Part shown: positions 1 through 3,000 of the stretch, one piece after another
How the letters are laid out: every line of letters begins with the position of its first letter
How positions within the stretch are numbered: the stretch's first letter is position 1
DNA from: a virus
Lineage: Duplodnaviria; Heunggongvirae; Uroviricota; Caudoviricetes
Direction: 5' to 3' (one strand)
Length of the DNA: 46,213 nt
IMG/VR virus record: IMGVR_UViG_2859821903_000001
Program-made: the position numbers

Positions 1-3000
1 TTGCCTCCCCCCGTTGATGGGTAAAATAGCCGCAATTTTTCGTTTTCAACAAGCGCGGCGCGATGCCGCTTACTCAAGAAGAAAGAATTATGACGTTGTC
101 TCCTTATTTGCAAGAGGTGGCGAAGCGCCGCACTTTTGCCATTATTTCTCACCCCAATAATTAATCCCAAATTAAAGCTCTTTTGCTCTTTCAAAATCCT
201 TTCAGTTAATTGAGGTCTAGTTATATAACTCATTTAAATACATATGGTTATGTGGCTTCTTTAATTGAAAATTCTTTCATGTAACTTTAAATCGATCAGG
301 TTGCTTTCATCAAAAATCTGTACATATGCTTGTACATAATGTACAAAGCAGCAGAGGTGTTTTGCGATTTGTACAAGGTGAGTAATGGCGCTGTCTGATG
401 CGTGGTTGCGTTCAGTCGTTGGAAAGGAACGTGATAAGGTTTTGGTTAAATCCGATCGTGATGGTCTGTCTGTCAGAGTATCACCGAAAGGTCGCGTAGT
501 GTTCCAATATCGTTATCAATGGGCAGGGAAAGGTGAGCGTCTTGATATCGGAACTTACCCGGCAACTGGATTAAAAGAGGCCAGAGAAGAAGTTATCCGT
601 CTCCGTGGTGAACTCGAGTCAAACCGTAATCCACGATTGGTCAAGCAGGCTGAAAAACGAAAAGCTACTGAAGCCATGACGGTAGAGTCTGTGATCCGTG
701 CCTGGTATGAAGCATATTGTGTAAAAAATAAAAAGGGTTCTGAACAGATACTCCGCTCGTTTGAGCTGCACCTGTTCTCTAAAATCGGGAACATCCCTCA
801 CGATGCAGCTACATTGCATGATTGGTTAGAAGTCCTGGAGCCTCTTAGCACTAAGACTCCAGCTATAGCAGACCGATTGCTAATTAACGCAAAGCAGGCC
901 CATGTCTGGGCGTATAAGAGAAAGCTTATTGAAACTCGCCCGCTGTCGGATATCACGGGTAAAGATATGGATATCCGTAAAGGTCAGAAGAAACGGTTTC
1001 TGACACACGATGAAATTAAAATTCTTTATGCTGCGATCGATGGCTCTAGAATGGTTCCCAAATACCGGGCCTTCATTAAACTATTACTGCATTTTGGTTG
1101 CCGTAGTTCGGAGCTAATTACTGCTAGGGTGGGTGATTTTGATTTCATAAATAAGGTATGGACTGTACCACCTGAACGACATAAGACAGGGGACATAACA
1201 GGCGAACCGCTAAAGCGGCCCATTATTGAACCGGTTGAAGAGCTTATAAAATACGTTATCTCTATGAACAACGGTTCCGATATGCTTTTTACTAAGGAAG
1301 GAAGCAGGGAGCCAGTCGGTAGGACATCATTACAGTCGCTGCCTTACAATTTAATGCAGTACGCGTGGCGGCGTTTAGGATATCAATTCCCTCATTGGTC
1401 TCTTCATGACTTGAGACGGACAGCACGAACAAATTTTTCTGATCTTACTGCGCCTCATATCGCAGAAATTATGCTTGGTCATAAGCTGCCAGGGGTATGG
1501 CAAGTTTATGATAAGAGCGATTATCTAGAAGAACAGCGTAAAGCTTACCTGGCATGGTGGAAGAGGGTTGAATCGATTGTTAATTGTACTATCTCTGATT
1601 CAAACTGACGGTTTGTATCACCTGAACATAACCAAATCTCCTAGCACACTTTGAGCGAGATGTGAGCGTTAAGTTTACGCCATTGTGTTGACATAAGAGG
1701 GCACGGGTATAGATATCATCACTATCCCTATGCCCCTAAATCGCTCCTGCTATTTGATAAATGCAGATGTTTACCACCAAATGTTTTTGATACTATAGGT
1801 TGATTCATGATTTACCTAGAAACTTAGTTGTAACGAAAACTTCTTAACGGACACTATCTGGATAAAGTTAGTTTTTTATTTAAGAGGGTTAACATGTCAA
1901 ATGGATTTGCCCCTATATTTCCAGACATCTGTTATCACTTAACCCATTACAAGCCCGCTGCCGCAGATATTCCCGTGGCGAGCGATAACCCAGCGCACTA
2001 TGCGGATGCCATTCGTTATAATGCTCGAACGCCTCTGCAAGGTTCTTTGCTGCCGTTAACCCGTCTGGTTTGGGCATGATACTGATGTAGTCACGCTTTA
2101 TCGTTTTCACGAAGCTCTCTGCTATTCCGTTACTCTCCGGACTCCGCACCGCCGTGTTCTTCGGTTCAAGTCCCAACATCCGGGCGAACTGGCGTGTTTC
2201 ATTAGCCCGGTAGCATGAACCATTATCCGTCAGCCACTCCACTGGAGACGACGGAAGATCGTTGCCGAAGCGGCGTTCCACCGCTCCCAGCATGACGTCC
2301 TGTACTGTTTCACTGTTGAAGCCGCCGGTAGTCACCGCCCAGTGCAGTGCCTCACGATCACAGCAGTCCAGCGCGAACGTGACACGCAGTCTCTCTCCGT
2401 TATCACAGCAGAACTCGAACCCGTCAGAGCACCATCGCTGATTGCTTTCTTTCACGGCCACTCTGCCTGTATGTGCCCGTTTCGATGGCGGTACAGCAGG
2501 TTTTCGCTCAAGCAACAGCGCATTCTGGCGCATGATCCGGTAAACACGTTTGGCATTGATCGCAGGCATACCATCAAGTTCTGCCTGTCTGCGAAGCAGC
2601 GCCCATACCCGACGATAACCATACGTGGGCAGCTCTCCGATAACATGGTGTATACGGAGAAGCACATCCGTATCATCAGTGTGACGACTGCGGCGGCCAT
2701 CCATCCAGTCATCGGTTCGTCTGAGAATGACGTGCAACTGCGCACGCGACACCCGGAGACAACGGCTGACTAAGCTTACTCCCCATCCCCGGGCAATAAG
2801 GGCGCGTGCGCTATCCACTTTTTTGCCCGTCCATATTCAACGGCTTCTTTGAGGAGTTCATTTTCCATCGTTTTCTTGCCGAGCAGGCGCTGGAGTTCTT
2901 TAATCTGCTTCATGGCGGCAGCAAGTTCAGAGGCAGGAACAACCTGTTCTCCGGCGGCCACAGCAGTAAGACTTCCTTCCTGGTATTGCTTACGCCAGAG

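Follow-up and report, generated by a model that had tools for sequence, protein, structure and literature searches.

We analyzed a stretch of DNA of 46,213 nucleotides from a virus of the class Caudoviricetes (IMG/VR record IMGVR_UViG_2859821903_000001), hereafter referred to as the window, whose first bases contain the start of prfC, the gene encoding release factor 3 (RF3). The window very probably begins at the left attachment junction (attL) of a lambdoid prophage that splits prfC and rebuilds it at the right junction (attR) with a phage-borne 5' end. In the mechanism that we propose, a phage tyrosine integrase would insert a lambdoid prophage of about 48 kb into the 5' coding region of prfC via the 14-bp core ATTATTTCTCACCC, by which prfC would be split after codon 22. 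The native promoter, the ribosome-binding site (RBS) and 22 codons would be left at attL as a 24-codon stump pointing to the integrase gene (int). The phage arm across the phage attachment site (attP) would bring an RBS-like stretch, an ATG and 21 codons, which at attR would become fused to codon 23 onward, giving an RF3 of 528 amino acids that would differ from the native protein solely in residues 3–8, where natural variation between species is also found. The chimeric gene would be transcribed from the phage arm of about 220 bp, and the host prfC promoter would now read into int.

The left junction lies at codon 22 of prfC

Comparison with E. coli K-12 MG1655 identifies positions 1–89 of the window (+ strand) as the host intergenic spacer between yjjG and prfC, which contains the native prfC RBS and the best candidate for the native promoter. 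The bases of this spacer are the same as those of K-12, except for a poly-C tract (7–12) that has six Cs in the window and seven in K-12. In lysogenic genomes, the yjjG stop codon directly precedes the equivalent of window base 1. Positions 90–155 are nucleotide-identical to prfC codons 1–22 of K-12 MG1655, and in an alignment to this uninterrupted locus the host identity ends at base 154/155, with none from 155 on. The prfC' stump (90–164, + strand) is made up of these 22 native RF3 codons, two phage codons for asparagine (AAT AAT) and the stop codon TAA at 162–164; the integrase ATG is located at 385, i.e., 230 bp after base 155. The initial annotation had described the first 22 residues of RF3 at 90–155, followed by a stop and by phage-like sequence with an integrase 230 bp further on, as a prophage inside the 5' coding region of prfC. 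This account is borne out in full: the 22 codons are real host DNA and not a chance match, since they are identical to those of K-12, the spacer matches as well, and beyond codon 22, where host identity is lost, the gene layout is lambdoid.

The same junction is widespread. A total of 700 genomes, out of 5,426 complete ones of E. coli, contain at least 80% of positions 1–700, a region that includes attL, and among the matches listed by megablast the same 700-bp junction was found at an identity of at least 99%. In strains 2013C-3033 and EC13, the 69 bp equivalent to the stump are designated an incomplete pseudogene by PGAP. The Rfam search gave no match at the junction, and the RNA fold of positions 60–400 has a z-score of -3.6, which we attribute to the AT-rich and palindrome-rich att arm.

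In phages of this group, the core does have a prfC-like 5' segment beside it. Hence, the 22 codons might be read as the phage's own prfC-like segment, in which case the window would start in a free phage or at attP rather than at a host junction. This reading is almost certainly wrong. The phage copy is different, as it begins with MTSLLAAE, uses other codons and is 21 codons long, whereas the copy in the window and the 89 bp upstream of it match the K-12 chromosome (the poly-C tract aside) and continue from yjjG in lysogens. The phage segment was therefore excluded as the start of the window.

The att core and the arm sites

The att core, which is the crossover region, occupies positions 141–154 (+ strand) and corresponds to codons I18, I19, S20 and H21 plus the first two bases of P22. 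The core had initially been expected around the P-loop codons, and this expectation was accurate: codons I18–P22 (I-I-S-H-P) directly adjoin those of the P-loop/G1 motif D-A-G-K-T, which they immediately precede. Sequence ATTATTTCTCACCC is the sole block that is common to attL in the window, attR in EC13, the bacterial attachment site (attB) in K-12, and attP in phages 2H10, cdtI and Ayreon. GenBank records of Shiga toxin (Stx) phages label these 14 bp “duplication due to insertion”. A direct-repeat search did not reveal a second copy of the core in the window and, because the core is present there only once, attR must be located outside the window.

The phage P' arm of attL (155–384, + strand) is situated just upstream of int and contains four TGTACA sites, at positions 319, 331, 340 and 370. 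There are eight TGTACA sites in the 46-kb window, four of which are thus clustered within positions 300–384. Four further sites are present in the 220-bp P arm of attR (3717824–3718042 of the EC13 chromosome), so that the repeat is strongly enriched on both arms, and a 22-nt module, TGTACATATGnTTGTACATAAT, is found both on the P' arm (attL) and on the P arm (attR). TGTAC repeats upstream of int are also present in relatives whose integrases show 50–84% identity. Because the integrase has an arm-binding domain (see below), the TGTACA repeats are most likely arm-type integrase binding sites, a role that we presume.

When the phage side of attR of EC13 was joined to the phage side of attL of the window, an attP of 486 bp was reconstructed. 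This sequence forms one contiguous stretch in the free phages 2H10 (99.8%), cdtI (96.5%) and Ayreon (96.3%), and it contains a small prfC-like open reading frame (ORF) about 220 bp upstream of int.

The prfC reading frame is rebuilt at the right junction

The last 914 bases of the window were used to find genomes having the same right end. They were matched over at least 80% of their length in 82 genomes, the best of which showed 99.5–99.7% identity. We inspected the right junction in three complete genomes, those of EC13, 13P477T and ACN001, and found the same order in each of them: a gene for a TIR-domain reverse transcriptase (- strand), a DinI-like gene (- strand), and a prfC gene of 1,587 bp that is not flagged as a pseudogene. 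The junction of EC13 reads ...CAAAGAGACAACAATT-ATG ACA AGC CTT TTG GCC GCA GAG GTA GCG AAA AGA AGA ACC TTT GCA-ATTATTTCTCACCC-GGACGCCGGTAAA... In other words, a phage-borne ATG, preceded by an RBS-like stretch, and 21 codons are joined in frame at the core to prfC codon 23 (D-A-G-K-T...). In all three genomes, the chimeric product is an intact RF3 ORF of 528 amino acids. The chimera of EC13 scores 1,089.7 bits against the prfC profile TIGR00503 (cut-off, 466.95), with its residues 6–528 aligned to profile positions 5–527. In the EC13 chromosome, yjjG, the 69-bp stump and int are located about 46 kb upstream, so that both junctions are found in one chromosome.

The right junction is present in 684 of the 5,426 complete E. 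coli genomes; each of the two junctions is found in about 13% of them. Two matches that extend from the core onward only (H139 and H140) were considered as a possible other element at prfC and turned out to be ordinary uninterrupted loci.

The distance in EC13 between the equivalent of the window end and the attR core is 2,070 bp. By analogy, the prophage of the window should end about 2.1 kb past the window, which would give it a total length of about 48 kb, including an IS2 copy of 1.33 kb. We infer that its own right junction is the same as in the relatives, i.e., ...GCAATTATTTCTCACCCGGACGCC..., with an open frame of 528 codons.

According to the initial annotation, the other junction must supply a promoter, a start codon and a replacement N-terminus, or else prfC, regarded as a translation factor with an essential function, would be inactivated. 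The joining of the right end to the remainder of prfC with an intact frame was indeed seen in the three relatives, and a phage-supplied start codon and N-terminus are present in these relatives, in a different prophage (that of an O170:H18 strain) and in free phage genomes. The promoter did not fare as well, as the scans described below gave nothing convincing. The word “must” was too strong, because E. coli can do without prfC (Ogura 2007, PMC2323221), and work with a strain deleted for the gene has been published (PMC2791158).

A widely cited survey lists prfC among the core genes that are “disrupted” by prophages (Bobay 2013, PMC3603311). In every lysogen that we inspected, the ORF is rebuilt and has the annotation of a full-length prfC, with a pseudogene entry of its own for the 69-bp stump. 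Surveys that score prfC as “disrupted”, and pipelines that flag the 69-bp stump, should count prfC as reconstituted.

The phage-borne 5' end resembles that of native prfC

The replacement 5' end was compared between seven phages and prophages that otherwise differ from each other, namely, EC13, 2H10, cdtI, Ayreon, the O170:H18 prophage, one Stx2c phage and one Stx1a phage. The P arm is almost invariant in all seven over a stretch that begins about 170 bp to the left of the core and takes in the RBS, the ATG and the 21 codons.

We then aligned the phage copy with the host copy by codons, starting at the core and moving backwards. Codons 9–17 (EVAKRRTFA) show eight nucleotide differences and no amino-acid difference between the copies; for random changes with the same number per codon, a synonymous-only pattern of this kind has a probability of about 2e-5. 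All amino-acid differences, together with a length difference of one residue, fall in residues 2–8. Native RF3 stumps from seven other genera show the same partition, in that residues 2–8 vary in sequence and length, and E9, V10, R13, R14, T15 and A17–P22 are invariant. On these comparisons, the phage segment can be regarded as a true homologue of the prfC 5' end that was kept or acquired under protein-level constraint. The synonymous bias is compatible both with selection in the phage and with inheritance from the prfC gene of another host, and does not distinguish between the two.

Codons 12–13 of the phage-borne prfC (14968–14973 of L001) are a tandem of the rare codon AGA (AGA-AGA) instead of the CGC-CGC of the host. 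A phage-borne tRNA-Arg that might offset them was looked for, and no tRNA genes were found in the window.

Targeting of prfC is an old property of the integrase clade

The int gene (385–1608, + strand) reads from attL into the prophage and encodes a tyrosine integrase of 407 amino acids, of the prfC-targeting (SXT-cluster) type. It contains the domains Arm-DNA-bind_3 (E = 1.9e-16, residues 3–90), Phage_int_M (E = 1.4e-7) and Phage_integrase (E = 6e-17, residues 205–379), and the R...HxxR...H...Y residues can be recognized in the translation within HFGCRSSE, HDLRRTAR, LGH and QVY. The protein is 98% identical to the integrase of the cdtI phage. The latter has been grouped with IntSXT in the prfC-targeting “SXT cluster” of the IntSXT subgroup (Smyshlyaev 2021, PMC8138268), and by virtue of the 98% identity the integrase of the window would fall into the same cluster.

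Relatives of the integrase were found in Trabulsiella (84% identity), Pantoea (83%), Symbiopectobacterium (67%), Serratia (61%), and Vibrio, Pseudomonas and Shewanella (50–52%). In these seven genera, the integrase gene is located directly behind a prfC stump that ends in ...AIISHP, and is preceded by TGTAC repeats. Since the stump is found with relatives down to about 50% identity, targeting of the codon-22 spot of prfC is an old property of this integrase clade. One relative of about 51% identity (L103, on Logan contig SRR16377031) is located after a trkA-like gene, without a prfC stump, and keeps paired TGTACA sites; it looks like a target switch within the clade. Being shared across Gammaproteobacteria, the codon-22 target can serve as a clean marker in searches for members of this clade.

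Comparison with known systems

The prophage of the window is a member of a group in which a cdtI/2H10-type att/int module is carried on a mosaic lambdoid prophage. The cdtI phage (Asakura et al. 2007; AB285204), 2H10 and Ayreon have the same att/int module and the phage-borne 21-codon segment. Outside the att/int region, these phages and the window prophage are mosaic. The cargo of the cdtI phage is cdtABC, whereas the window prophage has the TIR-domain reverse transcriptase gene and IS2; cdtI and 2H10 both have other cargo at the position of the reverse transcriptase gene. The long-tailed Stx1a and Stx2c phages (LC727876–LC727896) share the 14-bp duplication, the replacement N-terminus and the P arm. 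They differ in that they carry stx, and in their P' arm/int region, which is about 94% identical, versus 99%. Stx1a and Stx2c phages are present at prfC in Shiga toxin-producing E. coli of CC119 and O103:H2 (PMC10132054), and an O103 strain had been described before in which prfC holds an Stx1 phage, its N-terminal region being altered and its native RBS and promoter lost (Ogura 2007, PMC2323221).

Therefore, prfC as an attachment site and the replacement of its N-terminus, described in 2007, are already known. As a discovery the finding matters little, prfC being an established site for cdtI-type, Stx1a and Stx2c phages and for the SXT/R391 elements.

The SXT/R391 elements integrate site-specifically in the 5' end of prfC by means of a related tyrosine integrase. 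They are conjugative elements of about 100 kb, with a conserved backbone for conjugation and SetR/SetCD regulation and an integrase nearly identical to IntSXT, whereas the window prophage is a phage that probably works like SXT at the att site. The SXT core is said to be 17 bp long. Regulation of the SXT int gene depends on SetCD, which has no counterpart in the window prophage. The window contains genes for the phage head, the tail and lysis but lacks a conjugation module, and the prophage is therefore not one of the SXT/R391 integrative and conjugative elements.

Phage 21 and e14 integrate at the 3' end of icd, a duplicate of which they bring with them; this principle has been reviewed by Campbell. 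The logic is the same as here: the core is located in conserved coding sequence, the phage arm carries a diverged gene end, and the ORF survives. However, the window prophage replaces the 5' end of its target gene, unlike the phages at the 3' end of icd, and must therefore also bring the start signals for translation and transcription. A further difference is that the host promoter is left pointing into the prophage.

Transcription of the rebuilt gene

The best candidate for the native prfC promoter, TTGCCT (1–6)...TAAAAT (22–27), stays at attL and faces the stump and then int. In a relaxed sigma-70 scan, the spacing between the two hexamers is 15 bp in the window versus 16 bp in K-12; the difference in the poly-C tract lies in this spacer. 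Positions 1–700 were found to contain no terminator-like site.

Several points weigh against the proposal that the window prophage rebuilds prfC at attR as a transcribed gene. First, the right junction of this prophage is beyond the end of the window, so that the rebuilding was read from relatives that are 99.5–99.7% identical at the right end. Second, the first 25 kb of the window are covered to 86% by the closest of the 5,426 complete E. coli genomes. Third, a strict sigma-70 scan of the phage arm upstream of the new ATG detected no promoter on the + strand; this negative carries little weight, as the same scan also missed the native prfC promoter region. The best + strand candidate in the phage arm, TTTTCT-17-CATAAT, agrees at 8 of 12 positions and ends 16 nt before the ATG, and the candidates obtained for this arm with the relaxed scan were no more numerous than those in shuffled sequences. 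Fourth, attR has genes of the opposite strand directly upstream of it, and read-through from phage genes is therefore unlikely. Fifth, the phage arm is too invariant across the seven phages to tell a promoter from integrase-binding sites by conservation. Finally, prfC is dispensable, so an intact ORF in recent lysogens is no proof of expression. The expression of the changed prfC was stated to be unknown in the study of the O103 strain (Ogura 2007, PMC2323221).

These points lead to an alternative in which the frame is rebuilt at attR and the gene is silent or strongly down-regulated, lysogens being prfC knock-downs and the phage 5' end a relic. It would fit the lack of a + strand promoter above background on the 220-bp P arm, the divergent orientation of the flanking phage genes, the AGA-AGA tandem in place of CGC-CGC, the non-essential nature of prfC, the expression being given as unknown in 2007, and the counting of prfC as disrupted in the 2013 survey. 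We nevertheless consider it quite improbable. The phage copy keeps the RBS-like stretch, the ATG and the exact frame, and has eight synonymous and no non-synonymous differences in the conserved segment; moreover, the replacement design is invariant in all seven phages examined, and the strict promoter scan was equally blind to the native promoter region. There is also a precedent, as SXT, reportedly studied in this respect by Hochhut and Waldor in 1999, is said to replace the 5' end and the promoter of prfC with its own, giving a functional RF3. Because the start signals and the frame are so precisely preserved, and in view of the SXT precedent, the chimeric prfC of these lysogens is likely to be expressed.

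A rather speculative reading, to which we give little credence at present, is a promoter swap. The host prfC promoter would then read through the 24-codon stump into int, without a terminator-like site on the way, and RF3 would depend on a weak promoter in the phage arm that overlaps the TGTACA sites and has the tandem of rare AGA codons behind it. If this were true, the dosage of RF3, and hence stop-codon fidelity, would differ in the approximately 13% of E. coli that are lysogenic here, and RF3 dosage might respond to the state of the prophage. Ogura (2007) had already raised the issue of whether a chimeric prfC of this kind is transcribed and, if so, from where.

Two LexA-box-like sites of the form CTGT-N8-ACAG (14731–14746 and 14760–14775 of L001) are present upstream of the DinI-like gene. 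Relative to the prfC start that the phage supplies, they are divergent and lie about 160–200 bp upstream.

The body of the prophage and its cargo

The lambdoid prophage body extends from position 155 to 46213 and runs off the right end of the window, as judged from the ORF layout and the annotation of close relatives. The genes follow the order of lambda, with integrase, immunity and early region, lysis, head, tail and tail fibre, and the order from the head to the tail genes is complete. Annotations in close relatives include a LexA-family repressor, terminase, tape measure protein, gpJ, Lom, stfR and tail fibre assembly.

An IS2 copy of 1,331 bp (1902–3232, - strand) with a 5-bp target duplication is a clean insertion relative to phage 2H10 and is not part of the att system. 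Its ORFs are of the InsC/InsD type, with HTH_Tnp_1 and rve domains, and the element is labelled IS2 in close relatives. It is located eight bases into a hypothetical gene for a protein of 239 amino acids (ATG at 1894), which is intact in phage 2H10. In strain 2013C-3033, a close relative, IS2 is present at a different nearby spot. Based on its position and size, a short gene at 4232–4426 (- strand) is a tentative candidate for the excisionase, or recombination directionality factor. It encodes a short helix-turn-helix protein of 64 amino acids, with a weak match to HTH_17 (E = 1.4e-4) that is below the Pfam cut-off.

The cargo near the right end is the gene for the TIR-domain reverse transcriptase, of which the 3' part is present at 45791–46213 (- strand), as identified by a TIR_2 domain. 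Only this TIR-encoding part lies inside the window; in the relatives, the gene is followed by the DinI-like gene and then attR. The full protein of EC13 has 534 amino acids with RVT_1 and TIR_2 domains and is annotated as “TIR domain-containing anti-phage reverse transcriptase”. The region between the tail fibre assembly gene and attR (45375–46213 of the window; 12076–14095 of L001) contains a frameshifted remnant of a recombinase/invertase gene and then the reverse transcriptase gene.

We also considered whether the prophage is a fixed remnant that can no longer be excised, in which case the left junction would be a fossil and not a working attL. The IS2 copy 290 bp downstream of int, the frameshift in the recombinase gene near the right end in relatives, and the genomes that have attL and lack a full attR match (700 versus 684) could all be taken as signs of decay. 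However, int has its full length and shares 98% identity with the integrase of cdtI, an inducible phage, the core and all the TGTACA sites are intact, IS2 breaks only a hypothetical gene in a prophage whose head-to-tail order is complete, and the frameshifted recombinase is invertase-type cargo and not the integrase. Decay to a remnant is therefore unlikely, although less so than silencing of the rebuilt gene, and the left junction is probably a working attL.

The Rfam search gave matches above the gathering thresholds to the isrK Hfq-binding RNA (9977–10053), the C4 antisense RNA (10078–10165) and IS009 (45103–45301). The early region contains a 39-nt direct repeat, the copies of which are 66 bp apart (10944–11048). 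Three tandem repeats of 132 nt, with 100%, 78% and 61% identity to the first, are present at 43412–43807, inside the large tail-fibre ORF.

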